64,000 nucleotides of DNA from Chloroflexota bacterium (lineage in GTDB: Bacteria; Chloroflexota; Dehalococcoidia; Bin125), in NCBI GenBank assembly GCA_028874365.1, contig JAPPJZ010000062.1, positions 52,611-116,610 of the forward strand. The letters are read 5' to 3'. Below are positions 1,830 through 58,096 of the stretch, in pieces. Each line of letters begins with the position of its first letter. Position 1 is the stretch's first letter. The notes beneath the pieces were generated by a model, which was not told the origin of the DNA, made no database searches, and was given only the letters and a program-made list of their open reading frames with translations. The position numbers and the translations under genes are program-made.

Positions 1830-2608
1830 GCGACGTCACCACCGTTGCGACTCAGCAGGGCGACCACTCTCCGTACCGACATCGTGAACTGACCCTCCGA
1901 CTCCGCGTGCTGAAGCTCGCGACGCCAGTCGTCGAACCGCCGCGCCCGGATCTGAGCCGATTCCAGCACCAGATAGCGCCGAATCGATTCCAGGGTGTCC
2001 CAGGCCAGGGAGCCGGGCTGGAGCGTGTCGGTACTGATCGTCACGTTCGAAATCGCGTCGACCGAGAGACCAGCCTCAGCGCCGCGTGATCGAATCCTGC
2101 GGCGCAAGTTCTCAGGCGCGCCCTTCGTATAGGCGCTCACCAGGTCGCGGCCATGCTCAGCCTCGTCCACCTGGAACCAGAGCCCTTCCCAATCGGTCTG
2201 AACCAGCAGGATCGGACCGCTGTTCACCCGCGCAATCTCGGCCAGTGTCACGGTCGGATGCCGCAACCATTCGAAGACGTCGACCAACAACGCCGAATTG
2301 AAGCTCTGATCGGCGAACGGCAACCGTTGCGCGTCGGCGCGGACGACGCCCCAATCCGCCGGCCCCAACCAGTGCCCTGGTGAGGCCGCGTCGATCGCGA
2401 CGCCATGTAGCGGCGTGCCCATCGTGATCGCCGCCAACGCGAGTCCATCGCCCGTTCCGACATCCAGGACCGGCCGGGCGTCGCGCGGCGCACGCCCATT
2501 CAGCAGCAGGTCGTAGAGCGAGTCGTAGTGTCGCTGCAACTCCTGGTGAATGACCGGGAGTTCGCCGCCCGGGCGCAACGGCGGCGCCAGCGTTCGATGG
2601 TGCGGCAC
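1826..2608 (-). CDS. class I SAM-dependent methyltransferase
   Basis: LDVGTGDG glycine-rich SAM motif, methyltransferase-11-like layout. 4-nt convergent overlap with ABC ATPase stop. Confidence 0.7.
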   Translation of the reverse strand: MPHHRTLAPPLRPGGELPVIHQELQRHYDSLYDLLLNGRAPRDARPVLDVGTGDGLALAAITMGTPLHGVAIDAASPGHWLGPADWGVVRADAQRLPFADQSFNSALLVDVFEWLRHPTVTLAEIARVNSGPILLVQTDWEGLWFQVDEAEHGRDLVSAYTKGAPENLRRRIRSRGAEAGLSVDAISNVTISTDTLQPGSLAWDTLESIRRYLVLESAQIRARRFDDWRRELQHAESEGQFTMSVRRVVALLSRNGGDVA

Positions 2609-2618
2609 GACCGGCGCC

Positions 2619-3029
2619 TCAGGCCCACTCGGACGCGATGATCGGCTGCCGCCCCGCGAACCCGTCGGCCAACTCGTGCCACCAGCTCACCGTCCGCTCG
2701 CCGTATTGCCAGCACAGGTAGACCTCGCGTCCGTCCCGCTCCGCGCGCCAGTCGATCAGGCCCCGTCTGATGTCCTTGACCTCCACCCCCTGCCGCTGAA
2801 TGTGCTCGATCAGCTCTGCGATCTGCCCTTCAAGTTTGGCGATTTCCGCCCGGATCGCAGAGTCCTCGTTGACGACCGGATCGCCGTCCGCGCTCATCGT
2901 GCGGCTCATCGACGATGAGAGCGCCGAGAGTTCGTCGAGTCGGAGCGCTCGTTTGCGCATCACGGTCACCACCGCGGCGATCTCCGGCAGGGACCGCCGA
3001 GCCTGCGAAAGCGTGAACAGCCGCGCCAT
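2619..3029 (-). CDS. hypothetical protein (DUF2203-like, YLCWQYGE motif)
   Basis: 136-aa ORF with coding-like GC3, coiled-coil centre; family assignment from memory only. Confidence 0.45.
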   Translation of the reverse strand: MARLFTLSQARRSLPEIAAVVTVMRKRALRLDELSALSSSMSRTMSADGDPVVNEDSAIRAEIAKLEGQIAELIEHIQRQGVEVKDIRRGLIDWRAERDGREVYLCWQYGERTVSWWHELADGFAGRQPIIASEWA

Positions 3030-3079
3030 GCCACGGATTCTAGGCTGCCCGCTGATTCGCGCTCACCGGAGGTCGATGC

Positions 3080-5179
3080 TCAACGCTGCGACTCGTCGTT
3101 GGGCGACGGAGGAGCGTGCGGCAAGAACCACCAATTGTTCCGCGATTGCGCGGAGTGGTTGATGAACAGCGACCGCACGGTCGCCTCCTCAGGCGGCACC
3201 GACAGCACGATCGCCAGGTCATTCGCCAGCAGTTTCACGTTCCCTCGCGGGATTACGATTTCGCCACGCCGGTGAATCGCCGTGATCACCGATGCCTCGG
3301 GCAGCGGCAGTTGCGAGACCATGCTCGACTCGGCCTGGGAACCCGGCTCCACCCGCGCCTCGATTTCGATCGCACCGACCAATCGCCGCACTGGCGCCGG
3401 CGCCGCCCGCTGACCCGAGTCACGGTCGCTCGGCTGGGCAACCTCTCGCAGGACGTCGCGCTGCGTCAGCATGCCCATCAAGCGTGACTCGTCCTCGCGG
3501 GCGACGACCGGCAACTGGCGCACATCGTGATCGACCAGCACCGACAGCGCGTAGCGCAGGTTGTCGTCGGGGTGAACGAAGACCGGCGCGACGACCGCCA
3601 GGTCAAACGCCCGTCGATCCATCTCGCCGCGCTCAACCGCCGATGCCACGTCGGTCGCCGTCACCAGGCCGATGAAGCGGTTCTGCTGGTCGGCCACCGC
3701 CACCACGTTCCCGCGCGATTGGCTCATCGCGTTGGCCAGGTCCGCGATTGTTGCCATTCTCGACACGATTGGCGTGTCAGTGCGCATCGTCGCCGCCACC
3801 GTGAGATCGTCGAGCGGAGACGGTGCGGACTCCTCCTGGACGTCCAGGCCGGCTCGGCGCAGGCGGACGTTGTAAATCGTGTCCCGGGTCAGCAGCTGGG
3901 CCAGCGCCGCGGCCAGCGCCACCGCGGTCATCAACGGCAGGATCAGCGAGTATCCGCTGAGCTCGAACACGATGAACAGCGACGTCAACGGCGCCCGCGC
4001 CGCCGCGGCAAAGACCGCCGCCATGCCCACCACGACATACGTGCCGGTCGGCCCCACGATGCTCGGCAGCGCCGACTCGAATCCCGCACCCATCAAGGCG
4101 CCCAACGTCGCGCCCACGAACAGCAACGGCGCAAACGCCCCGCCCGAAGCGCCCGAGCCAATCGTCAGCGACGCCGCGATCAGCTTGAGCACCATCAAGA
4201 TCGCCAGCGTTGAGACGGCCGTCCCACCCTCGGCGAAGATTCTGATCTGATCCAGCCCGGACCCGAGAATGTTCGATTCGATCAGCGCCAGCACACCGAC
4301 GCCGAACAGACCCAGAATCGGTCGAACCGACATCGACACGCCGAGGAACTCGAACACGTCCTCGGTGAAGAAGCGCGTTCGGACGAAGAGAATCCCGGCA
4401 ATCGCCGCCGAGATGCCGACGATCGCATGCAGGAACAACTCCCAGCTGCTGTTGATGTCGAAGTCGGGCAGGTCGAGCCCCGCCGAGTCGCCGTAGAAAG
4501 CCACGGCGACGATGTTCGCGACCACCGCAGCCACGACCACGATCGTGAAGTTGCGCACGTTGAATCGACGCAGCACCACCTCGAGCGCGAAGAACGTGCC
4601 GGCGATTGGCGTGTTGAACGTGGCCGAGATGCCGCCCGCCGCAGCCGCCGCCACCGTCAGGACCAGCATGTCGGACGGTTGCTTCGTCACGCGGCCAATC
4701 GTCGAGGCCAGCGACGCGGCGATCAGGACGATCGGACCCTCACGTCCGGCCGCGCCGCCGCCGCCCAGCGTGAATCCGGTCGCGACCAGCTTGGCCGGCG
4801 CAATGATCGGTCGCACGAATCCGCCGGCGCGTTCGACCGCGACCATCACGTACGGCACGCCCGCGCCCTGCGATTCGGACGCGACCCGCGAGACGACGAA
4901 CGCAACCGGAATCGCCGCGATCGCCGGAACCAGCATCAGGGTCCAGCCGCCCGCGAGACCATCGAGCAGCGACGTGAGCTCGTCGAAGACCATGGTCAGA
5001 CCGTCGACCAGGGCGCTCAGCGCCACGGCCGCGAATCCCGCTGCCAGACCGACCGCCACCGCAAGCAACAGCGGCGCGAGGTTGCGCGGGACGCGAACCC
5101 GGCCGACCAGCGGCAGGCGCCAGAAGAGATGCGCCGACCGGGTGCCGAATCGCCTGGACGGACGGCTGACGAGGGACAT
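3080..5179 (-). CDS. ClC-family chloride channel with C-terminal CBS pair and TrkA-C-like domain
   Basis: GREGP selectivity motif and GSGASGG in N-terminal ~450-aa membrane domain; two CBS repeats and an RCK-C-like tail. Confidence 0.9.
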   Translation of the reverse strand: MSLVSRPSRRFGTRSAHLFWRLPLVGRVRVPRNLAPLLLAVAVGLAAGFAAVALSALVDGLTMVFDELTSLLDGLAGGWTLMLVPAIAAIPVAFVVSRVASESQGAGVPYVMVAVERAGGFVRPIIAPAKLVATGFTLGGGGAAGREGPIVLIAASLASTIGRVTKQPSDMLVLTVAAAAAGGISATFNTPIAGTFFALEVVLRRFNVRNFTIVVVAAVVANIVAVAFYGDSAGLDLPDFDINSSWELFLHAIVGISAAIAGILFVRTRFFTEDVFEFLGVSMSVRPILGLFGVGVLALIESNILGSGLDQIRIFAEGGTAVSTLAILMVLKLIAASLTIGSGASGGAFAPLLFVGATLGALMGAGFESALPSIVGPTGTYVVVGMAAVFAAAARAPLTSLFIVFELSGYSLILPLMTAVALAAALAQLLTRDTIYNVRLRRAGLDVQEESAPSPLDDLTVAATMRTDTPIVSRMATIADLANAMSQSRGNVVAVADQQNRFIGLVTATDVASAVERGEMDRRAFDLAVVAPVFVHPDDNLRYALSVLVDHDVRQLPVVAREDESRLMGMLTQRDVLREVAQPSDRDSGQRAAPAPVRRLVGAIEIEARVEPGSQAESSMVSQLPLPEASVITAIHRRGEIVIPRGNVKLLANDLAIVLSVPPEEATVRSLFINHSAQSRNNWWFLPHAPPSPNDESQR

Positions 5180-5322
5180 CGACTACATCACCCGCTCGAC
5201 GCAGCCGGCCAACACGACTCGAACCATGCTCGGGCTGCGGGAGCTACCCGTCTGAGGCTATGCCTCCCGATGGCAGCGGGCAATCAGCCTCTGCGAACCC
5301 CGCGGATCGCCGCAGGTTGCGC

Positions 5323-6717
5323 CTACTCCTCCTCCAGCGCGTCTTCTTCCTGTTCGTCGGCATCCGCGGCGTCGCCCGAATTCGCATCGTTCCCTGAACC
5401 GCCGTCCAGCGAGATCCTCAGCGCCTCCACTAGGCTGTCGCCCTGGACCGTGAACACGAACGTGTAACGCGAGGCCACCGACTCATCCATCGCCAGACCG
5501 TTGACCACGATGTCGGGCACCCCATCGCCGGTGCGATCCAGGATCTCAATCCCTGAAACGGCGCCGACCTGCGCAGCCGTGCTCGTCACCGTCCGGTAGC
5601 CGTCACCCGTCGACGAGAGCACATAGAAGCTGCTCACGCAGCCCGACTCGTCGCACGTGATCTCGCGGAACGCAAGGTCGCGGACAGCGTCACCGGTGAG
5701 ATCGACATCGACGAGCTGCTGCAAGCCCTGAACTTCCCGTGCGTAGCTCAACGCGTGGTCGTACGCGATCCGATACTTCGACGGATTGCCGGGTACCGGG
5801 TCATAGACGACCAGGTTCGAATACGGCACGGCAGCGCCGAACGAGTTCGGGTCCGTGTAGATGATCGAGGCGGAGAACTGGCCGTCGTCGGTGGTGTCGA
5901 CCAGCACGATGCGATCGTGCCCGACGGCCAGCGGAGGCATCGGCCAGGCCTTGAACAGCTCGATGATCGGCTCCACCTCGTTGATCCCGTGCAACCAGGG
6001 CAATGCCGCTGCTCCGTACTGCAGGAAGTTGGCCGGCGGATCTGGAATCGTGTCGGTCGTCTGATCGGGCCCCGGCTGCGGGAACTGCGTGTACGAGACC
6101 TGTGTTGGCGTGGCTGCCGGAACCGCAACCGTCGGCAGCTCGACGCTCGGCGGCTCGATCTGCTCATCCTCTCCCTCTTGCTGCTCATCTTCAGCCGCCT
6201 GATCCTCTTCCCCATCGTCCGATTCAGTGCTGGCCGGTTCCTGGCCCGGAATCCTCAGCTCCTGCCCCACATGCAGAACGTCGGGGTCCTGAATGCCATT
6301 CAATGTGATCAAATCATCGATACGCACGTTGAACCGATTTGCGATCTGGGCCAGCGTGTCGCCCGGCTGCACGATGTAGATGCTGGGGTCGGTCTCTGGC
6401 TCCTCGACCTCAGCAGCCGTCTGTTCCCGCTGCGCGGCATCGTCCTGCGACGACGAGGTCGTCACCCGCACGGTCTCGGTCGGTTGAGCGGTCTGTTGCT
6501 CCTGGGCCTCGGACTGTGTCGTCGCCGCCGCGGCCGTGGGCTCGCTTGTTTGCGTCGTCTCGGCTGCCGTGTCGGGACGCTCGACGACATCGGGCTGCTC
6601 GTCGTCGCCGCCGAACAATCCACACGCAGAAAGGATGAATGAGCAAATCAGCAAGATGGCAAAGAGAGCGACGAACCCGACGCCACGCCGTCGAGTATGC
6701 GTACGTGTTTGGGACAT
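5323..6717 (-). CDS. LysM-domain lipoprotein with acidic low-complexity linker and FG-GAP/VCBS-like C-terminal region
   Basis: Signal peptide plus lipobox LSAC (start MSQTRTH at 6717); LysM YIVQPGDTLAQIANRFNV...LNGI; C-terminal DGxxD repeats; E/D/Q-rich linkers. Confidence 0.7.
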   Translation of the reverse strand: MSQTRTHTRRRGVGFVALFAILLICSFILSACGLFGGDDEQPDVVERPDTAAETTQTSEPTAAAATTQSEAQEQQTAQPTETVRVTTSSSQDDAAQREQTAAEVEEPETDPSIYIVQPGDTLAQIANRFNVRIDDLITLNGIQDPDVLHVGQELRIPGQEPASTESDDGEEDQAAEDEQQEGEDEQIEPPSVELPTVAVPAATPTQVSYTQFPQPGPDQTTDTIPDPPANFLQYGAAALPWLHGINEVEPIIELFKAWPMPPLAVGHDRIVLVDTTDDGQFSASIIYTDPNSFGAAVPYSNLVVYDPVPGNPSKYRIAYDHALSYAREVQGLQQLVDVDLTGDAVRDLAFREITCDESGCVSSFYVLSSTGDGYRTVTSTAAQVGAVSGIEILDRTGDGVPDIVVNGLAMDESVASRYTFVFTVQGDSLVEALRISLDGGSGNDANSGDAADADEQEEDALEEE

Positions 6718-6811
6718 CAGTGGCACAACCGCCCCGTCGCCTGTAGCCACTCTATACACATTCCCAACTTGGGGGCGAAGCGCGAAACCGCGTCTAAGCT
6801 ACGTGTCGAAG

Positions 6812-7183
6812 CTACAAGCGCGCGAGCTGTTGACCCAGCCACGCGGCCGCCAATCCGCCGACCGCGGACACGAGCAGATTGGTCAACGCCCAGACCCAGC
6901 GGCCGCCGTTGAGCAGATGCAGCGTGTCCAACCAGACGGTCGAAAACGTGGTGAATCCGCCCAGCAATCCCACCGTGATCGCCAGGCGCATGTTGTCCGA
7001 GACGCCGAGTCGCTCCAGGAACAGCGTCGCCACGAGTCCCAGCACCAGCGTCCCGCTGAGGTTGACCACCAGGATGCCCAGCGGCAAGCCGTCGGGCTGA
7101 CCAACCCAGCGATTGAGGAGGTAGCGCAGCACGGAGCCGGCCGCGCCGCCGAGCGCAATCGAAGCGATCGCCGCAACCGTCAT
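6812..7183 (-). CDS. crcB: fluoride exporter CrcB/FluC
   Basis: 123 aa, four TM, conserved GGFTTFSTF motif. Confidence 0.85.
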   Translation of the reverse strand: MTVAAIASIALGGAAGSVLRYLLNRWVGQPDGLPLGILVVNLSGTLVLGLVATLFLERLGVSDNMRLAITVGLLGGFTTFSTVWLDTLHLLNGGRWVWALTNLLVSAVGGLAAAWLGQQLARL

Positions 7184-7186
7184 CGA

Positions 7187-8071
7187 TCAGCGGCCCGTCG
7201 ATCCGAACCCGCCGGAGCCGCGCGCCGTGTCGTCGAGGTCGTCAACCTCTTCCACCGCAGTCAGCGCCACCGGCGCCACGACGAGCTGCGCAATCCGATC
7301 ACCGTGATTGACGCGGTAGCCACGACCCGACGGCCCGCGCAGCGACATCGACACCAACAGCTCACCGCGATAGTCCGCATCGACCGTGCCCCAGCCGATC
7401 TCCACGCCCCGCCGCGTCAGTCCCGAACGCGGTCGAATCTGTATCTCATAGCCCGGCGGTGGCGCGCAGGCAATGCCGGTCGGTACCGGTTGCGGCATCT
7501 GCGAGAGGTTGAGCCAACCGCCCAACTCCGAAAGGTCGGCGTACAGATCGAGGCCGGAAGACAGCTCGGAGCCGCGCGTGGGCAACTGCGCCGCCGCGCG
7601 CAATCGCCGCACGCGCAGGGCTCCGAGCCTGCCGCCCTCCGTCACAGCCCAACGGAACGGCGGGAAGTTGTCCAGCGGTGTGTCCGCCAACACGGCTGGA
7701 TCGTCGGGCGCCTGACGCAGCAGAGCCGCCGCGTCGCCGACCGTCGTCGACACGTCCACTCCCAGGTACGACGGCGCATACGGCGCCAGGCGTTCAATTC
7801 CGGACGACAGTTTGATTCGCACCCCGCGAGGCCGGTGCGTGCCGGTCCAGTGATGCAGGCCGGCTGCCAGCAGGATCAGGCCCTGGTAGAAGCTGCGGAT
7901 TGGTCGACGCTCGACCTGCCAGATCTCTTCCCACGTCTCATGCGCATCAAAGAACTGCTTCGCGTCCCACTCCGCTGCGCCCTTCGCGAGTTCGGCGCGA
8001 TGCGCTGTCGACACTGTCGGTTCAAGCGCGAGTTGTTCCGCTCGGGACGGGATCTCACGAACTCGGGCCAT
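7187..8071 (-). CDS. dut: DUF309 domain fused to dUTP diphosphatase
   Basis: N-terminus FFDAHETWEEIW...GLILLAAGLHH (DUF309-like). C-terminal dUTPase motifs SSGLDLYA, RSGLTRRG, GTVDADYRGEL, GDRIAQLVV, RGSGGFGSTG. Stop 3 nt from crcB start, so likely an operon. Confidence 0.85.
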   Translation of the reverse strand: MARVREIPSRAEQLALEPTVSTAHRAELAKGAAEWDAKQFFDAHETWEEIWQVERRPIRSFYQGLILLAAGLHHWTGTHRPRGVRIKLSSGIERLAPYAPSYLGVDVSTTVGDAAALLRQAPDDPAVLADTPLDNFPPFRWAVTEGGRLGALRVRRLRAAAQLPTRGSELSSGLDLYADLSELGGWLNLSQMPQPVPTGIACAPPPGYEIQIRPRSGLTRRGVEIGWGTVDADYRGELLVSMSLRGPSGRGYRVNHGDRIAQLVVAPVALTAVEEVDDLDDTARGSGGFGSTGR

Positions 8072-8102
8072 CAGGCCGGCCGCCTTCTGCGTTCGCTGAG
8101 CA

Positions 8103-8657
8103 GTGAGTTGTCCCGCCGCCGTCGTTCATCGACACTGTGCGCGACGCCCCACGCGTTGGATACAGGTTGAGGTAAACATCATCGCTGATTCTGTAAACGT
8201 CCAGGCAGCGCTCGCCCAGAACTTCGAAGAACTGCGATCGTTGCTCGACGCCTGCGCCGATGACCGCCTCGACGAACGCCTCGGGCCCGTCGAGTGGTCC
8301 GTTCGCGAAATCCTGCTGCACGTCGTCCACTCCGAGCGTTGGCTGCATCCTCAGCTCATGCTGCTGCGCCGCGAGGTCGCGCCGCAACTCCCGATCCCGC
8401 CCGTCGGCGGCGTCAACCTGCCCGACACGGAGTCCGAGGCATCGCTGCCGGAACTGCGATGGGCACTGACCAGCGTGCGCGAAGACACCGAGCGTCTGCT
8501 CTCCGACCTGTCATCCGATCAGCTCCGCGAACCGGCCAACATCGAACTCGACGGCGATGTGCTCGATATGTCCCTGCGAACCATCGCGCTCACCGCCGCC
8601 GATCACCAGCTCTTCCATGTCCGCCAGATTCAACGGACGCTCGGCATCGCACCCTGA
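8103..8657 (+). CDS. DinB/YfiT-like (DinB_2 family) protein
   Basis: ILLHVVHSERW and HxxxH-type four-helix-bundle motifs; start codon uncertain (probably an internal GTG/TTG near 8160). Confidence 0.6.
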   Translation: MSCPAAVVHRHCARRPTRWIQVEVNIIADSVNVQAALAQNFEELRSLLDACADDRLDERLGPVEWSVREILLHVVHSERWLHPQLMLLRREVAPQLPIPPVGGVNLPDTESEASLPELRWALTSVREDTERLLSDLSSDQLREPANIELDGDVLDMSLRTIALTAADHQLFHVRQIQRTLGIAP

Positions 8658-8738
8658 TCGCCATCCGCCCACGCTTGCCATAATCGATAGCCTGCGCGCA
8701 CCGGCCCCGCGCACTCCGCTCATTCAGGGAGCTTCGCA

Positions 8739-9308
8739 ATGCAACGCACCGCCGACGAGTACCCGGCCCGTCTCGACATCGAGTACCCGCAATCGCTCGA
8801 TCGCATCTCGACCCTGCTCCGACCGATCCTCGCAATCCCCGTCGTCGTCCTGCTCTGGTTCATCCCGCCGATGCTCTGTACGCCGGTCGCCCTGGTGCTC
8901 GTGGTGCGTCGCAAGTATCCGCGCTGGTGGTTCGACTTCAATCTCGAAGCCACCCGCTTCCACAACCGCGTCTATGCCTATCTCAATCTGATGACCGACC
9001 GGTATCCATCGACGGACGAAGAACAGTCGGTGCGGCTTGACCTCGACTACCCCGACGCCGCCCAGCTCAACCGATGGCTGCCGTTGTTCAAGTGGTTCCT
9101 GGCGATTCCGCACTACATCATCATCTGGGTGCTGGTCGGCATCCAGAACATCGTCGTGTTGATCGCCTGGTTCGCGATCCTGTTCAGCGGAACCTATCCG
9201 CGACCGCTGTTCACCTTCATGCTCAACGTCGAGCGCTGGGTCCTCCGCGTCGAGGCCTACGCCTTCCTCCTGATCACCGACCGCTACCCACCCTTCCGCC
9301 TCGGCTAG
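8739..9308 (+). CDS. DUF4389 domain membrane protein
   Basis: KYPRWWFDFNLE motif and two hydrophobic segments typical of DUF4389. Confidence 0.7.
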   Translation: MQRTADEYPARLDIEYPQSLDRISTLLRPILAIPVVVLLWFIPPMLCTPVALVLVVRRKYPRWWFDFNLEATRFHNRVYAYLNLMTDRYPSTDEEQSVRLDLDYPDAAQLNRWLPLFKWFLAIPHYIIIWVLVGIQNIVVLIAWFAILFSGTYPRPLFTFMLNVERWVLRVEAYAFLLITDRYPPFRLG

Positions 9309-9311
9309 CAG

Positions 9312-12300
9312 CTACGCCGCCAGTCTGAGCGCACCGTGCAGCTCGATCCGCCGCAGGAACCACAGGAACGCGCCCAGATTGAGCGCAAACAGCGCTGACA
9401 ACGCGCCAAACAGGATGCCAACCCCCGGCCAGTCGATGATGAACTGCAGCGCCGGCACCACATCCCGACCATCCGGCGTGAGCGCGAAGAAGTCCAACAG
9501 CACCGCGCCCGCCTGCGTCCCCACGATCAGTCCCGCTCCCAGTCCAATCGCGATGATGATCAGTTGCTCCAGCGCGATCAATCCCAGAATCTGGCGCATG
9601 CTCATCCCGACGCTCTGACACACGGCAAACTCCACCCGTCGCGCCTGCGCTGTCACTGCGGTCAGCACCACCAGACCGAACGCCGACGCGATCGCCACCG
9701 CCGCCAGCGCGCCGATGAAGACCCCATTCCACGAAGCGACGATCAGCGGGTCGGCCGCCAGTTCCTCCCGGGCGCTCTCGATCGTGGCGATGCCATCGCT
9801 CTCGATCGGCAGCTCGTACCTGGCCAATAGACCGCCCCAGCGCTGCAGCGACGCCGACGCCCACAGTTCGTTGCTCACGGCCAGCGCCACGCCGGCCGCG
9901 GCGCTGCCATACAGCCGATCGATGAATGCCGCGCGATCGATCAACACGAGCGGATCATCGCGCTGCGGGTCGTAGCTCGGGAACGTCTCAAACTGCCCGC
10001 CGACGAGGAACGTCATCGAGGATGGCCCGATCCGCAGTTTGACCGTCTCGCCGATGTTGAGCCGTCCCTGTGCGATGGCCTCCGCCGAAAACAACGCCGG
10101 CAACGGGCCCCGATCCGCGATGTAGCGCACCCCGCGCAGCGACGATGGGATCGCATTCCAGCGATAGCGCGCCTCTGTTTCGGTGACGACGAAGAAGTCG
10201 AGCGGCTCCTCGCCGACCTCCAGGGGCGTCGCCTCCCAGCGTCCTGAGCTGAAATCGGCCAACAGGTAGCTCTCGCCACGCCGGGCGTAGCTCAGATCGC
10301 CAAGCAAGATTTCTCCCCCGGCGCGTGTGAGCGCCAGGTCAAGCGACACCAGTGTCAGTGGCGCGACTGGACGCTCAGCCACCGTGGGGCTGAACCTGCT
10401 TTGCCCCTGGATCAGCCGAGCGCCCTCCAGAGGCAGATAGGCCGCCGGTTCCTCCGTTAAGCGGTTCGAGATCGTGATCCACTCCGGATCTTCTTGAACC
10501 TGAGTGGGACTGAGCGTGTCAATCGCATACCACCAGTAACGTCCGATCGCGTCCAGCACCTTGATGCCGATCACGGTCTCCTGCTCGAGCTGCACAACCG
10601 CAATCCGTAGCTCCAGCAGGCCCCCAAAATCGTCGATCACCGCTCCCTGGACTTCGTTAAGCGGTACCGCAATCTGCTGCAGGTCCGCCGGCGGCAACGC
10701 CCAGTCAGCCCCTTGTTCGGCCAGCTGATCGGCAACCACCTCGGAGTCCAACGCAGCGATCTGCAGATGACCCGAGTCTTCATCCCCTTCGAACGCCCCC
10801 ACGATCCGCTTGATCTGTGCCACCGATGCACCGCTGGCGTCCTCAATCGCCTCATATTGAACAATGTCCGAGACCGGCTCGGTCAGCCGTACCGACGCGC
10901 CCACCGCGTGCAGCGAACGATCGTTGTAAGACGTGTCGAGCGTCGTCCGGAACGAGGCCGCAAACACCGCCAGCGCACCCGCGATCGTCAGCAACAGCAC
11001 CGTCCGCGCGTAGTGCGTCGGTGTGCGACCCAGATACCAGGCGCCCATCAGCAGCGTCAGCGAGCGCCAGGGCGACGCAAGCCGGGCCAGCAGCCGCATC
11101 GTCGGTGGGAACAAGCGCAGCACGATTAGCCCAACCACGAACAGCAACACGGTCGGCGTCGCGACCGCCAGCCAGTCCAGCCGCGTCTCACCGACCAACG
11201 GCGAATCGATCGGATCGCCGGCCCATTGCAGTTCGAAGATCAGCAGAGCGCCCAGCGCTGCTACAGCCGCGTCGATCAGGGCGCGCTGCGTCCATGATGC
11301 GGGCGGCCGACCGCGCTCCCGGCGGGTCGTGACCATCGTCTGGCGAGTCGCCCGGTACGTCGGCACTGCCTGAGCCAGCAGCGCCAGCACCCCTGCGCCC
11401 ACGGCCAGGTACCACGACTCGACCGGCAGCGAGACCGGCAGGAACGGACCCGCGCCGGTAGCGGCCAGCGCCTCATCGAAGGGCGGCACGAACCCCAACA
11501 GACTGACCAGCCCCATGCCGATCAGCGGCCCCAGCAATATCGCCGGAGCGGTCAGAATCGCAGCCTCGACGATGTGCATCACGGCGACATCGCGCTGCCG
11601 GGCGCCTCGCGAACGTAGCCAGGCCGTGTCCTCGGTGCGTTGCTCGGCGAGCATCGCCGATGCCACCACCGCATAGACCAACACCGCGCCCACGAGCTGC
11701 AGCACGATCATCAATAGCGTCGACTGGGCAAACTGGAAGCGTTGGCTGAACCCGACCAGCGTGTCGACCAGTTCCGTCTCCTGCTGGATACCGTCCACGG
11801 ACTGCGAGATTCGCCGAGTCATCTGCTCCAGCGAATCGGCCGCCGCAGACGCTTCCGCCGCCGACGCGCCGTGCAAGTCGGTCCGGAACCGCTGCAGCAA
11901 CGACAGACGCAACGTGGGCGACTGCTCGGCCAGAATGCCGAGAATCCCCTCCCGCGTGGTCCAGAACCGCAGTTCCGTGTCCAGCGCCGCGATCGGCAGG
12001 AACAGCGGATCGAGCGTTGACCAACGCCGCTCGTCGGTCGACGGCTCGATGATCCCGACAATCCGCACGCGAGTCTCATGCTCGGTGCCCAGCCAAAACG
12101 GTTGCGCCAGTCGTTCGTCTCCAACGTCGAGTCCAAAGTCCTGCGCCTGCCTCCGCTCGACCATCACCTCCAACAGATCAGTCGTTGCCTCCGGTCTACG
12201 GCCGGCCACGACTTCTGAGAGGTCCGCCACATCGCTCTGCGCAACGAACGTGGCGTGATCGGCGTCCGGCGGATCGAACGGCTGCTCCTCGGTTCGCAGG

Positions 12301-12659
12301 ATGTATCCACCGGTACGGAGCGCCGTCATTCGGCCAACCGTGAGCGACGAGGCCGCCGCCGAGACTTCGTCATGGATCAGCGACTCAACGTCGTCAACTG
12401 ACGCTGAGTCCGCGGTCACGTTGGTCTGATTGAATCGCAGGTCCAGCGTTGCCGGATCGGCATCCGCGAGCGTCTGCCGCAGTCCCAGATCACGCACCGC
12501 TTCGATGAAGATCGGCGCGCTGCTCGCCAGGCCCACCGCCAGCAGCGCCCCGATCAGCAGCACCGTCGAGAGCCTGGGCGCCGAAGCGATACGCCGCAGC
12601 GCCAGTCTGCCGAGCTCTCGGGCCGTTTCACCGCGTCGAGTCGGAATCTGCTGCGACAT
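9312..12659 (-). CDS. ABC-transporter permease, FtsX-like double-domain (YbbP/MacB-type), 1115 aa
   Basis: Two FtsX modules, each with a large extracytoplasmic loop; C-terminal FtsX signature ...SVGMSMRQILGLIALEQL.... Confidence 0.8.
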   Translation of the reverse strand: MSQQIPTRRGETARELGRLALRRIASAPRLSTVLLIGALLAVGLASSAPIFIEAVRDLGLRQTLADADPATLDLRFNQTNVTADSASVDDVESLIHDEVSAAASSLTVGRMTALRTGGYILRTEEQPFDPPDADHATFVAQSDVADLSEVVAGRRPEATTDLLEVMVERRQAQDFGLDVGDERLAQPFWLGTEHETRVRIVGIIEPSTDERRWSTLDPLFLPIAALDTELRFWTTREGILGILAEQSPTLRLSLLQRFRTDLHGASAAEASAAADSLEQMTRRISQSVDGIQQETELVDTLVGFSQRFQFAQSTLLMIVLQLVGAVLVYAVVASAMLAEQRTEDTAWLRSRGARQRDVAVMHIVEAAILTAPAILLGPLIGMGLVSLLGFVPPFDEALAATGAGPFLPVSLPVESWYLAVGAGVLALLAQAVPTYRATRQTMVTTRRERGRPPASWTQRALIDAAVAALGALLIFELQWAGDPIDSPLVGETRLDWLAVATPTVLLFVVGLIVLRLFPPTMRLLARLASPWRSLTLLMGAWYLGRTPTHYARTVLLLTIAGALAVFAASFRTTLDTSYNDRSLHAVGASVRLTEPVSDIVQYEAIEDASGASVAQIKRIVGAFEGDEDSGHLQIAALDSEVVADQLAEQGADWALPPADLQQIAVPLNEVQGAVIDDFGGLLELRIAVVQLEQETVIGIKVLDAIGRYWWYAIDTLSPTQVQEDPEWITISNRLTEEPAAYLPLEGARLIQGQSRFSPTVAERPVAPLTLVSLDLALTRAGGEILLGDLSYARRGESYLLADFSSGRWEATPLEVGEEPLDFFVVTETEARYRWNAIPSSLRGVRYIADRGPLPALFSAEAIAQGRLNIGETVKLRIGPSSMTFLVGGQFETFPSYDPQRDDPLVLIDRAAFIDRLYGSAAAGVALAVSNELWASASLQRWGGLLARYELPIESDGIATIESAREELAADPLIVASWNGVFIGALAAVAIASAFGLVVLTAVTAQARRVEFAVCQSVGMSMRQILGLIALEQLIIIAIGLGAGLIVGTQAGAVLLDFFALTPDGRDVVPALQFIIDWPGVGILFGALSALFALNLGAFLWFLRRIELHGALRLAA

Positions 12660-15600
12660 CAGTCGGCGCCCTCCCGCAGCAGAGGAGCCGCTTCACGGCC
12701 CGTCGCCCAGCGTGAGATCGCGGTCGTGCCCAGCACCGCACATAACACGATCACCCCGACACCGATACCGGCCAGGACCCAGTCGATCGACAGCACCGTC
12801 GGCGGCGCAGCCGCCACCCCTTCAGCCGTGACGTCGAGGAACGCCAACAGCGCGCCCGCCACTGCCCGCCCCAGGCCGAACCCCAGCGCCACACCGGCCG
12901 CCAACACGAGGCCGACTTCCACCGCGGCTTGCGCGGTCAACCCGGCCCGACCTGAGCCGACGGTCCGCATCAGCGCAAACTCGCGAGCCCGCTCGCCGCC
13001 GGCCGCCGCGAGTGTGAAGATCAGCGCCGCCGATCCCACGATCAAGAGTCCGATGAACCCGACCACGAACAACGCCGCCGCCCCGCCCGAGCGAAACGGA
13101 TCCTCCTCCGCCGCCACGATCTTCGCCTCCGCGTCGAACACTGTGCTGGACAGATACACATCGTCCAGCAGCTCGGCGGCAATCAGGCGTCCCGCATTGC
13201 TTTCTGTCGCAGTCCACACCTCCGTGATCGGCAGCACCGCCTGAACCGCCGCGACCAGCGCCGCCCCCCGCAGCGCTAGGAGATCCACGATCAGGAACCC
13301 GCCCTGCGCCGGATTGAGCGTGGGAAAGTAGTCAACGGCCGACTGAATCCGGACCGGGATGGTCGCATTGCTGACACCGATCGGGACGATGTCGCCGACA
13401 CTGAGGTTGGCGGTCTCCATCGACGTTCGATCCATCGCCGCATTGACCGGCAGGTTCGGCGATTCGCGCACGATGATTCGCTCATCGCTGGCCGCAAGCT
13501 GCGACCAGTGGTAGCGCAGACCTCCGCCCTCGAACGAAATCCGGTCTTCGCCCGCGCCGCCTGAGGCCGGCAGCCACGGTCCAGCCTCGTCAAACGCATC
13601 CACCGCGACGGATTGCTCCCCGACCTGCGCGTTCAAGTCGTCCATGTACAACGTCCCGGTCGGCGCTCGAACCACCCGCGCCTGCGGACGCAGAATGATC
13701 GCCGCGATCCGCAGTGGTTGCTCGAGCCCGCCCAGAGGCGCGCGAAACGTGTTCCAGTCCCCGTCAACCACGGAAGCCGTATTCGTCCGAAACGGGCGCA
13801 TGTGCACCTGTCCACGGGCGTCGAGCACCCGCGCCGCCAGTTCAAGATTGCTGTTCCCCGGATTGCTGCGCACGCGAACCGTCAACGCCTCCGCCCCGTC
13901 CGGCAACTCCTGCCCGGCTCGCCCCGGCTCACGCTCGATCGCCGCCAACAGCTCGTCCGGCGGCGTGCCCAGCAAGTCCTCGTCCAGCGCCACGATCTCG
14001 GACAGCCGACTCGTCTGCAGCCCCAGCAGCACGACGCGGCTGCCTTCCCGATCGCCGCCGATCGCGCCGATCCCGCGATACGCCGCTGCCGCGCTGATTC
14101 CCTGACGGCTCTGCAGCGGCTCCGTCACCCGGCCCACCGTCGAGTTCGACAGGTTGCCGCCGATTGACACCCCGCGCAGGTCCGAACCGACCTCATATTC
14201 AATCCGCGACCGCTCGACGGTCCGAATCGTCGACGCATACGTCGCCGAGATCAGTCCCACGGCCGTGATGAACGCAACCAGGGCCGTCAGCAACATCGGG
14301 CCCGTCGGATTCCGAGCCACGCTGAGCACCCCGAGGTACAACCACGACGGAATCGGTGATCTCGAGAGCAGTGCCGCCGCGAAGCCCCACACCCGCGGGG
14401 CGACCCGCATGATCGTCAGTGCCGCGCCCAGCAGAAGCAGTCCGGGGCTCAGCATCAGCACCGGATTGATCCCGCCCGACTCAAACGCGGCCAGCGCCCC
14501 GCCCGACGCTTCGGTCTCGAACTGAAGAAACAGCACCGTTGCCAGCGCCAGCAATGCCACGTCGAGCCACGCCCGTTGCACCAACGACTGCCGCTGCGGG
14601 CGCCCCTGCGCCACGCGCTCGTTCGTCCGCTGCCGCGCATCGAACCAGGCCGGCGCCGCAAACGCGATCCAGGCGATCACCGCGCCCGCAACTGCCAGCC
14701 CCCACGCCTCCGCCGTCAGCCGCGTATCGAACGGCTCGCCGCCCGAGACCCGAGCCACTGCCTCCAATCGACCGGCATGACTCAACGCAAAAGCCGCCAG
14801 CGGCGCGCCGAGAATCGCCGCCGGTAGAGCCGCGACCCCGCCGAGCATCGCCTGCGCCCCGGCCTGCTGCCATGGTTTCGCTCCGCGAGCCGCGAGCCGT
14901 TCGCGATCGACCCGAGTCCGCTGCGCCATCACGCGTCCGACCAGCGCCACGCCGAACATCGCCACCGCGGCGATCTGCAAACCGGCCAACAGCGACTGCC
15001 CTGCCGAAAACTGCGCCTGGCGTACGAACGTCTGCAGCGTGCCCACCAGGAGCGTGCCCGCCGAGCCACCCTCCAGGCGACTCAGCTGTTGTTGCCACGC
15101 GCCCAGCGACTCGATCACGGCCTCAACCTGGTCGGAGTTAATCGCTCCGGTGTCCAGTTCCGTCCGCATCCGATGCGTCACCGGAGCTCCGAGTCGCTCC
15201 AGCGCGTCGGGCTCGGCGAACATGCCGAAATACGGCACCTCCGCGCCGCCCAGCGTGATATCGAACTGCAACTCGAACCAGACGTCCGTGTAGTGGAACG
15301 CCAGCACCCGCGTGACATCGTCCACGACCGGTTCGATGATCCCGCTGATTTCGAACTGCATCGCCTCGCTGAAACTGACCACGCTGCCGACATCGATGCT
15401 GAGCTGCTCGGCGAGCCGCGCGCCGATCACCACCTCGTCCGCCGAACCGGCCCAATCGCCCCGCACCAGCCGCGCGTTCGTCCGCAGTTGCTCGAACGAC
15501 ATCAGATACGCCAGCAGGGACTCGTTCAGACCGTTGTCGAGGCGCGTAAACCCGGCGAACGTCTCGGGAGTCTCCATGATCCGCCGTGTGTCGCTGGCCA

Positions 15601-58019: not shown

Positions 58020-58096
58020 TGGCGACCCCGAGCGGATTCGAACCGCCGATCTCCACCTTGACAGGGTGGCGTGTTAGGCCGCTACACCACGGGGCC
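58020..58096 (-). tRNA. tRNA-Asp (anticodon GTC), CCA encoded
   Basis: Hand-folded cloverleaf: acceptor GGCCCCG/CGGGGTC, anticodon stem CCACC/GGTGG with loop CTGTCAA, T-loop TTCGAAT. Confidence 0.85.

Follow-up and report, generated by a model that had tools for sequence, protein, structure and literature searches.

We consider it reasonably likely that the crcB gene characterized here belongs to a housekeeping operon of a Dehalococcoidia (Chloroflexota) bacterium, in which it would be expressed constitutively by riding on a dut gene, and that the ClC gene found nearby is separate and not part of a fluoride system. The locus looks like a case of ordinary constitutive expression, not a dedicated or new fluoride-resistance system.

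Results

Gene content of the locus

The window (the whole 64-kb stretch of DNA that was analyzed) carries genes for a DUF309–dUTPase fusion, CrcB, a LysM-domain protein and a ClC protein, all on the minus strand, and a divergent DinB_2 family gene (Table 1). The open reading frame list and the sequence agree in gene content and coordinates with an earlier, sequence-only reading of this DNA. The 3-nt interval that it gave between dut and crcB is also correct: on the minus strand, the dut stop codon TGA (7189–7187) is followed by TCG and then by the crcB ATG at 7183. No second crcB, dut, or ClC gene was found within the window by tblastn and HMM searches. The entire neighborhood is syntenic across the clade loci, with DinB_2 divergent from dut in every relative. 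Start-codon analysis indicates that DinB_2 probably starts at ATC 8178 or 8181, and not at GTG 8103. The LysM protein has a hydrophobic N-terminal segment and an acidic low-complexity region. Its gene may be part of the dut–crcB transcript; a consensus scan found no terminator-like site between crcB and the LysM gene, and some relatives (L006, L011, L040, and L045) have insertions between the two.

Table 1. Features of the dut–crcB locus and its surroundings, in window coordinates.
Feature	Position	Strand	Size and basis
ClC with CBS pair and TrkA_C tail	3080–5179	-	699 aa; Pfam, PDB sequence matches
Promoter-like motif TTGCCC-N17-TAGCCT, upstream of ClC gene	5255–5283	-	Conservation and motif scan; putative function
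LysM-domain protein gene	5323–6759	-	Pfam LysM, 5.6e-16
crcB (Fluc family)	6812–7183	-	123 aa; Pfam, TIGR00494, alignment to 5a43
Spacer, dut stop TGA to crcB ATG	7184–7186	-	3 nt; read from sequence
DUF309–dUTPase fusion gene	7187–8071	-	294 aa; Pfam, NCBIfam, AF2, Foldseek
dut/DinB_2 divergent intergenic region	8072–8180	.	Alignment of about 45 loci; motif scan
DinB_2 family gene	8181–8657	+	Pfam DinB_2, 2.5e-11

A clade-restricted DUF309–dUTPase fusion

The dut product matched two Pfam families, DUF309 at residues 29–77 (PF03745; E = 1.6e-16; 60.2 bits vs. a cut-off of 27) and dUTPase at residues 161–293 (E = 5.5e-21), and it exceeded the cut-offs of both TIGR00576 (dut; 116 vs. 102.55 bits; the dUTPase Pfam family is PF00692) and NF001862 (113.9 vs. 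103). Domain boundaries were placed at about residues 10–130 for the helical DUF309 domain (nt 7682–8044), about residues 141–151 for a flexible linker, and residues 152–294 for the dUTPase domain (nt 7190–7618). The AF2 model (mean pLDDT 88.6) consists of two domains with a low-confidence linker at 145–148; within the dUTPase domain (residues 152–280), most 10-residue blocks average 86–95, and the C-terminal tail is disordered. Foldseek matched the model to the jelly-roll fold of dUTPases (E = 6e-13; target-normalized TM up to 0.91); these matches dominated the search with the full model, which returned nothing on the DUF309 domain. All five dUTPase motifs (GLDL, RPRSG, GTVDADYRGE, GDRIAQ, and RGxGGFGSTG) are kept unchanged or almost unchanged in 43 family members. 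The dUTPase of the fusion is probably catalytically intact and of the homotrimer type. It shares the five motifs and the predicted fold with E. coli Dut, human DUT, and M. tuberculosis Dut, and is 36–41% identical to solved dUTPases in structural alignments. Unlike these three homotrimeric enzymes, it carries a 150-residue N-terminal extension composed of the DUF309 helical domain and the linker.

PDB sequence matches of the fusion were dUTPases and the DUF309 structures 2cwy (TTHA0068; E = 0.0013) and 2ijq. With these two DUF309 proteins the fusion has in common PF03745, the signature H-E-x-x-E-x-x-W, and a downstream Q-G, and its model is helical in this part. The signature residues H44, E45, E48, and W51 do not vary among the 43 family members of the clade, and they correspond to the positions that show little or no variation in 39 DUF309 relatives from outside it. 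Most DUF309 proteins are stand-alone proteins of 110–170 aa, whereas the DUF309 of the window is fused to dUTPase.

The fusion occurs in about 60 protein clusters and 38 species genomes, all within one Dehalococcoidia clade. This clade is partly sponge-derived, some members being sponge MAGs; one relative, bin125 (MPNM), is a MAG from the sponge Aplysina aerophoba (PMC5649159). Among long DUF309 relatives outside the clade, 0 of 39 had a dUTPase domain, a count taken on the long representatives, beyond which lie roughly 1,950 weaker DUF309 matches. From the dUTPase side, the 120 best matches outside the clade included no independent DUF309–dUTPase fusion. The architecture is rare and clade-restricted, and a single fusion event in the clade ancestor would have given the dUTPase its N-terminal helical domain. 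The earlier suggestion that it may be new stands in part: no description of a DUF309–dUTPase fusion, and nothing relevant on DUF309, was found in the literature searched, but the fusion is already present in databases, where its NCBI product name is 'dUTP diphosphatase.'

CrcB and the loss of Phe83

The crcB product scored well above the cut-offs of Pfam CRCB (PF02537; E = 2e-27; 96.0 vs. 32.9 bits) and TIGR00494 (95 vs. 80.45 bits), and it aligned over its full length to Fluc-Ec2 (PDB 5a43; E = 1.4e-17). It resembles Fluc-Ec2 and Fluc-Bpe in its size of about 123 aa, its family, and its retention of Arg19, Asn41, and Phe80 (Ec2 numbering) and of the TM3 break GGxTTFST, which reads GGFTTFST in the window. 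All 120 of 120 homologue clusters keep the three residues; their invariance and that of the break indicate that CrcB is under purifying selection. Its substrate is presumably fluoride.

CrcB departs from Fluc-Ec2 at F83, the second phenylalanine of the pore. This position is Val in the window, followed by Trp at residue 84, and Val, Ile, or Leu in all 84 of 84 clade clusters, vs. Phe in 16 of the 17 nearest outgroup sequences and in most of 80 diverse loci. Two further differences, H106 to Ser and T114 to Ala, are both frequent in outgroup proteins with an intact F83. Transport by Fluc-Ec2 is lost on substitution of F83 (F83A/L/I/M and others; PMC5636608), so activity of CrcB as a homodimeric fluoride channel is not assured. 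CrcB could conceivably be one half of a heterodimer whose partner is encoded elsewhere, or its function could have drifted or weakened; in keeping with the former, a non-aromatic residue at 83 is typical of one member of a tandem pair (STL + STF at locus L119). We nevertheless regard such a loss of self-sufficiency as rather unlikely. Unlike tandem Fluc pairs, crcB has no adjoining partner gene, and an HMM scan of about 45 orthologous loci gave no second crcB, as in the window itself. No crcB paralogue from the same genomes was seen among the 120 best crcB homologues, a set in which distant paralogues would not be listed. CrcB is a single gene with a near-zero K+R bias, like dual-topology homodimers: its bias of +1 equals that of homodimeric Ec2 by the same calculation, vs. 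+4/-4 for the L119 pair. Other Fluc proteins also deviate. The CrcB of locus L074 has Leu at 83 and lies under a fluoride riboswitch, with no second crcB seen in its 3.9-kb locus, which extends about 500 nt past crcB, and M. tuberculosis Fluc, which lacks both second-position phenylalanines, is a natural exception noted in the eLife study (PMC5636608). The invariance of R19, N41, F80, and the TM3 break weighs against a loss of self-sufficiency as well.

Absence of a fluoride riboswitch and of a structured leader

An Rfam/Infernal search gave no RF01734 match at the gathering score in the whole window, and none at E ≤ 10 in positions 2500–9500 on either strand. The same scan found RF01734 (56 bits) directly upstream of the unrelated crcB of L074, and with this positive control working, a fluoride riboswitch is ruled out. 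The sequence-only reading, which had detected no riboswitch and proposed an Infernal run, was thereby borne out for both leaders that it had scanned. Nor was RF01734 found in any of 10 orthologous loci spanning 52–89% identity, and in a diverse set of 20 crcB loci it was missing from 19. Most crcB genes thus lack this riboswitch, and the window is no anomaly in that respect. Nothing relevant on fluoride riboswitches in Chloroflexi was found in the literature searched. The window encodes the same exporter family as RF01734-controlled crcB operons such as that of L074. Unlike them, it and the 10 orthologous loci have no aptamer, and crcB comes second, after dut.

The dut leader had been taken to span 8072–8160. 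Most of this segment proved to belong to the divergent DinB_2 gene, as its putative promoter and 5′ region, and only about 30 nt are left for dut. The dut/DinB_2 intergenic region contains two conserved blocks, GGGACAACTCAC (8102–8113) and CACAGTGTC, which are near-invariant in about 40 species with variable bases next to them. The dut leader, measured from the first block to the ATG, is about 30 nt in the window and as short as 8 nt in L042 and L043, which is too short for an aptamer given that the Rfam fluoride model has 64 positions.

Near-invariance of this kind could mark an operator, and the operon might then be regulated by a protein, or by an unrecognized RNA element, acting at the blocks. 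Such regulation seems improbable to us, since a sigma-70-like -35/-10 pair of DinB_2 (TTGTCC-N17-GACACT; 8108–8136, plus strand, by motif scan) falls on the blocks, and its form is that of the conserved promoter-like motif of the ClC gene. Moreover, the stretch from the block to the dut ATG differs among loci in sequence and, from 8 to about 75 nt, in length. RNA folding of the intergenic region was no better than that of shuffles (z = +0.63 and +0.46), and Rfam at E ≤ 10 yielded no family fitting this position, its three matches (E 6–10) lying far below their gathering scores. No structured leader precedes dut, ClC, or LysM, with folding z-scores of +0.63 to -0.49. A motif scan found no dut promoter motif on the minus strand. 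Consensus scans were uninformative: they gave no promoter sites, and their only two terminator-like sites both fell within coding regions and were fewer than shuffled sequence yields. Since there is no fluoride riboswitch, regulation is independent of one or constitutive, much as the sequence-only reading had put it ("different or constitutive"). Since a structured leader is also absent, we favor constitutive expression, with crcB riding on dut.

Pairing of dut and crcB

In 35 orthologous loci, scored from crcB residue 1, the dut–crcB spacer is 3 nt in 24 and ranges from -4 to 45 nt in the rest, and wherever a clade locus has crcB, dut adjoins it at no more than 45 nt. A consensus scan found no terminator-like site between the two genes. 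This arrangement makes co-transcription of dut and crcB almost certain, as had been proposed earlier, and with crcB starting 3 nt after the dut stop they would probably be translationally coupled too.

Hydrolysis of dUTP requires Mg2+ and releases pyrophosphate, and fluoride poisons Mg-dependent phosphoryl-transfer enzymes. On this basis the two genes might be coupled in function, the exporter being co-expressed with a fluoride-sensitive nucleotide-sanitizing enzyme that DUF309 may modulate. The constancy of the pairing would fit, as would its survival in the four relatives with insertions between crcB and the genes beyond it; the outgroup L052, where crcB follows an unfused dut in a different neighborhood, could also hint at a functional link. 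Common descent, however, explains conservation inside one syntenic clade, and 0 of 80 diverse crcB loci have a dUTPase within 3 kb. The three outgroup dut loci are divided, with crcB present in L052 and absent in L053 and L054; in another outgroup (L137), crcB lies behind a CoA-transferase gene with a 4-nt overlap. In L005, which carries the most divergent fusion, the LysM gene comes next and there is no crcB. No functional link between crcB and dUTPase was found in the literature searched. In view of these observations, we judge functional coupling to be quite improbable. The pairing is conserved but lineage-restricted and reflects no general link; crcB located tightly behind other genes in outgroups (L052 and L137) indicates that crcB recurs as a passenger in operons, in agreement with constitutive expression on dut.

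The ClC gene

The ClC protein matched Pfam Voltage_CLC (3.4e-80), CBS (5.9e-18), and TrkA_C, the last only just above its cut-off (27.3 vs. 27 bits). The description in the sequence-only reading of a chloride-type channel with GREGP and a CBS plus RCK-C tail is consistent with these domains and with its nearest PDB sequences, StCLC (1kpl) and ClC-ec1. Orthologues keep GREGP, GAGVP, a Val in place of Glu_in, and the central Tyr. The protein shares the CLC superfamily fold with CLC-F antiporters (6d0j). Unlike them, it has the GREGP motif and a cytoplasmic CBS pair with TrkA_C tail, and together with scores of 48.3 bits against CLC-F and 148.6 against StCLC, this rules out its being a CLC-F. CLC-F proteins are not known to have such cytoplasmic domains. 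The promoter-like motif upstream of the gene is kept in about 35 orthologous loci, in which the flanking spacer ranges from 72 to 890 nt. The ClC gene is probably a separate transcription unit. The implication that the nearby ClC makes this a fluoride-resistance locus was not supported; the protein is of the canonical chloride type with a conserved promoter-like motif of its own.

Discussion

In the arrangement that we favor, crcB would be expressed constitutively with dut, without a riboswitch or structured leader, and the ordinary chloride-type ClC two genes downstream would be transcribed from its own promoter outside any fluoride system. Placing a passive channel on a housekeeping gene would be a cheap arrangement for an organism that, were it marine, would meet steady fluoride. 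It is very improbable that the clade package of DUF309–dUTPase, a coupled single crcB, and loss of Phe83 is a functional innovation in which the homodimer conducts an anion and DUF309 ties in dUTP sanitation; were it so, CrcB would be a dual-topology homodimer for fluoride or another anion with a pore chemistry 'dead' by Fluc-Ec2 mutagenesis, and the His/Glu signature of DUF309 would link dUTP sanitation to transport or to metal or fluoride status.

The locus is useful for calibration. A riboswitch-less crcB behind a housekeeping gene is normal and no sign of new regulation, and a ClC gene nearby does not define a fluoride locus. DUF309 is widespread, and few contextual hints to its role are available. 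Its fusion to dUTPase, stable and under selection across about 40 species, is such a hint, and the role may lie in nucleotide metabolism or in acting on a metal-dependent hydrolase. Finally, a clade of apparently single-copy CrcB proteins without Phe83 provides a natural test of the 'Phe box' rule derived from Fluc-Ec2.

Results

The gene arrangement described by the sequence-only reading, in which a dut gene with an N-terminal DUF309 domain is followed 3 nt later by crcB, with a ClC channel gene two genes on, was present as claimed in the sequence and in the Pfam assignments. The dut/crcB junction reads ...GGC CGC TGA TCG ATG ACG... on the minus strand, which places the crcB start directly after the TGA TCG, and the curated NCBIfam cut-offs for 'fluoride efflux transporter CrcB' and 'dUTP diphosphatase' were exceeded. 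Upstream of dut lie DinB_2 and DUF4389 genes, both on the opposite strand, and two large FtsX-type permease genes; DUF2203 and methyltransferase genes lie downstream of the ClC gene.

Features of the crcB locus and of the surrounding window
Feature	Position	Strand	Description
ClC ORF	3080-5179	-	699 aa; Pfam Voltage_CLC 3.4e-80, CBS 5.9e-18, TrkA_C 27.3 bits (barely over the Pfam cut-off of 27)
Motif upstream of ClC gene	5255-5283	-	TTGCCC-N17-TAGCCT, strongly conserved
LysM ORF	5323-6759	-	478 aa; Pfam LysM
crcB ORF	6812-7183	-	123 aa; Pfam CRCB 2e-27
DUF309-dUTPase ORF (dut)	7187-8071	-	294 aa; Pfam DUF309 E 1.6e-16, dUTPase E 5.5e-21
Conserved block	8102-8113		GGGACAACTCAC, near-invariant, 30 nt from dut ATG
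DinB_2 upstream region	8103-8200	+	GAGGTAAACATCATCGCTGAT, near-invariant: Shine-Dalgarno, 4-7 nt, then ATC ATC
Motif upstream of DinB_2	8108-8136	+	TTGTCC-N17-GACACT; GGGACAACTCAC plus CACAGTGTC, other strand
DinB_2 start	8178 or 8181	+	Probably non-canonical ATC
Two tandem FtsX-domain permease genes	9312-15436	-	~1100 aa each, mutual identity roughly 24%
tRNA gene	58023-58096	-	Sole Rfam match at gathering score in the 64-kb window

Full-length relatives of the fusion formed about 60 clusters (90% identity clustering), down to 52% identity, all with both PF03745 and PF00692. They occur in 38 species-representative genomes, all of them MAGs that carry the label Dehalococcoidia, Chloroflexota or Chloroflexi; chromosome sizes span 2.3-3.7 Mb. 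One of these MAGs, bin125 (MPNM), was recovered from the sponge Aplysina aerophoba (PMC5649159), and the isolate names of several others suggest a sponge origin too. Across the clade the gene order is FtsX-FtsX, DUF4389 and DinB_2 (opposite strand), then DUF309-dut, crcB, LysM, ClC, DUF2203 and methyltransferase; the FtsX pair adjoins the locus in every relative. Among the 35 cleanly scorable loci, 24 separate dut from crcB by 3 nt and the others by -4 to 45 nt, and this gap was free of insertions in every clade locus compared. Insertions do occur between crcB and LysM in four relatives (L006, L011, L040, L045), and a 3.8 kb insertion separates LysM from ClC in another (L037 8685-12536). The arrangement is real and conserved, and is very probably an operon.

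Among 43 aligned family members, the five dUTPase motifs and the DUF309 signature (H44, E45, E48, W51, G64) were all invariant or nearly so, and the signature residues are also those invariant or nearly so in DUF309 proteins outside the family. Purifying selection acts on both domains. An AlphaFold2 model built from the same 43-member alignment (mean pLDDT 88.6) comprised a helical domain at residues 10-130 (10-residue block means 84-98), a linker of low confidence (pLDDT <50 at residues 145-148) and a beta domain at residues 152-290; with a pTM of 0.53, the model does not define how the two domains lie relative to each other. By Foldseek the beta domain matched human, plant, mycobacterial and other dUTPases (E about 1e-12, target-normalised TM ≤0.91), and the N-terminal part matched the DUF309 structures 2cwy and 2ijq in sequence. 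The fusion is very probably an active dUTPase.

On the dUTPase side, DUF309-bearing matches were all clade members, and the 120 best matches outside the clade lacked the domain. An exhaustive HMMER search with fusion residues 1-150 against 1.84 billion representatives gave 2107 hits, of which the five better than 1e-30 were all clade members or fragments of them; the next match had 36% identity. DUF309 proteins are mostly stand-alone (110-170 aa), and a Pfam scan of 39 long relatives found no dUTPase domain but a second DUF309, alpha/beta-hydrolase, AP_endonuc_2, TPR and others. Since neither the best dUTPase-side matches nor the 39 long relatives gave a dUTPase fusion outside the clade, DUF309-dUTPase appears to be a single-origin, lineage-restricted fusion. 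The earlier suggestion of a new architecture is borne out in that the fusion is uncommon, being confined to one Dehalococcoidia clade, and that our literature search found no paper on it, but the protein is already in public databases, where its NCBI name is 'dUTP diphosphatase'. In one relative, represented by two contigs that may come from the same sample or data (L055 1360-2041; L056), DUF309 (153 aa) and dUTPase are encoded in separate reading frames with an 8-nt overlap, which is either a natural split form or a sequencing frameshift. A further set of proteins of 400-500 aa (P0063-P0078), with dUTPase domains, no DUF309 and 209-265 bits against the fusion, probably carry tandem dUTPase repeats and come from unrelated organisms.

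The reported absence of a fluoride riboswitch also held. Infernal with all Rfam models at gathering thresholds found no RF01734 in the 64-kb window, nothing resembling it at 2500-9500 even at E≤10, and none in 10 orthologous loci (fusion protein identity 52-89%). As a positive control we scanned 20 unrelated metagenomic crcB loci; one of these, L074, gave a 56-bit RF01734 match whose end lies 21 nt upstream of crcB, and therefore the scan works. The other 19 had none, so that a crcB without a riboswitch is the common case within this sample. The view of the region as a noteworthy site of fluoride resistance under atypical control is not borne out. Candidate leaders folded no better than dinucleotide shuffles (z +0.63 to -0.49). 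In two relatives (L042, L043) just 8 nt separate the conserved block from the dut ATG, leaving little room for a leader.

The motifs upstream of DinB_2 and ClC share the form TTGyCC-N17-nAnnCT, which is kept in about 35 species within spacers that vary. Both are read here as putative sigma-70-like promoters, and the shared form may represent a local promoter consensus of the lineage. A minus-strand motif scan found no matching motif for dut. The observation on the DinB_2 start covers, besides the window, L011, L014, L024, L026, L030, L031, L033, L038 and L039. In many relatives the upstream frame has a stop, or no ATG/GTG/TTG ahead of the conserved EVNIIADF, and two (L003, L044) have ATG at the position aligned with the ATC.

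Discussion

The window CrcB departs from Fluc-Ec2 at the second pore phenylalanine. On Fluc-Ec2 (5a43) numbering, R19, N41 and F80 are invariant, and the window CrcB has Val at position 83 followed by Trp84. The clade motif is GGFTTFST-V-W, with no partner gene adjacent (P0268-P0351): position 83 is V, I or L in all 84 clusters at least 59% identical to the window CrcB, which correspond to the fusion clade, and Phe in 16 of the 17 nearest outgroup sequences and in most of 80 diverse loci. Unlike Fluc-Ec2, the window protein also carries H106S and T114A, both common in outgroups that retain F83. Replacing F83 of Fluc-Ec2 by A, L, I, Y, W, S, H or M abolished transport in every case, to <1e-4 of wild type (PMC5636608). 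Either a partner subunit is encoded elsewhere in the genome, or the Phe83 rule from Fluc-Ec2 is not universal. A non-aromatic residue 83 typically marks one of the two subunits in a tandem heterodimer, such as the STL plus STF pair of L119, whose K+R biases are +4 and -4. However, neither the 64-kb window nor any of about 45 orthologous loci contains a second crcB, and the window CrcB has a bias of +1, equal to that of homodimeric Ec2 by the same calculation. Moreover, the riboswitch-controlled crcB of L074 has Leu83 in a short locus where no second crcB is visible, and M. tuberculosis Fluc, which lacks both second-position phenylalanines, is a natural exception (PMC5636608).

A functional link between dut and crcB finds no positive support, and evidence from outside the clade is mostly negative. 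No dUTPase, ClC or other window gene was found near crcB in 80 diverse loci (34-51% identity, 3-kb flanks), our literature search found no paper tying crcB to dUTPase, and in the most distant family member (L005, 52% identity) LysM comes immediately after the fusion gene, with no crcB. Of three outgroup loci with un-fused dUTPase, one has the order Fer4-dut-crcB, with crcB 80 nt after dut, and then MIP on the opposite strand (L052 4001-4962); crcB is absent from L054, of related context, and from L053. In L137 (2817-4369), crcB is an outgroup gene of L052 type and overlaps the preceding CoA-transferase gene by 4 nt. Such tight placement behind unrelated genes in outgroup Dehalococcoidia suggests a habitual operon passenger; on the simplest reading, these bacteria tend to keep crcB, a small passenger gene, tucked behind whichever gene precedes it, and dut and crcB are paired through inheritance of a gene order that may predate the fusion.

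Membership of the ClC gene in a fluoride system was rejected on its canonical-type scores (149 bits against Salmonella CLC, 1kpl, and about 123 against ClC-ec1, compared with 48 against the CLC-F antiporter 6d0j) and its own promoter-like motif. Together with a LysM-ClC spacer varying from 72 to 890 nt (e.g., L001 10697-11234; L026; L045), this conserved motif makes the gene look independent. The protein carries a CBS pair and the TrkA_C tail, and retains the external gating Glu of GREGP and the central Tyr; the central Ser is Ala (GAGVP) and the internal proton-transfer Glu is Val, a pattern conserved in 34-37 of 37 orthologues.

The explanation that we prefer, and consider rather probable, is that the fluoride channel gene would be expressed constitutively, coupled to a housekeeping dUTPase gene that happens to bear a clade-specific DUF309 domain. 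What is new here is a pair of variations on known themes, namely the fusion of DUF309 to dUTPase and a single CrcB without Phe83; any functional effect of either is putative.
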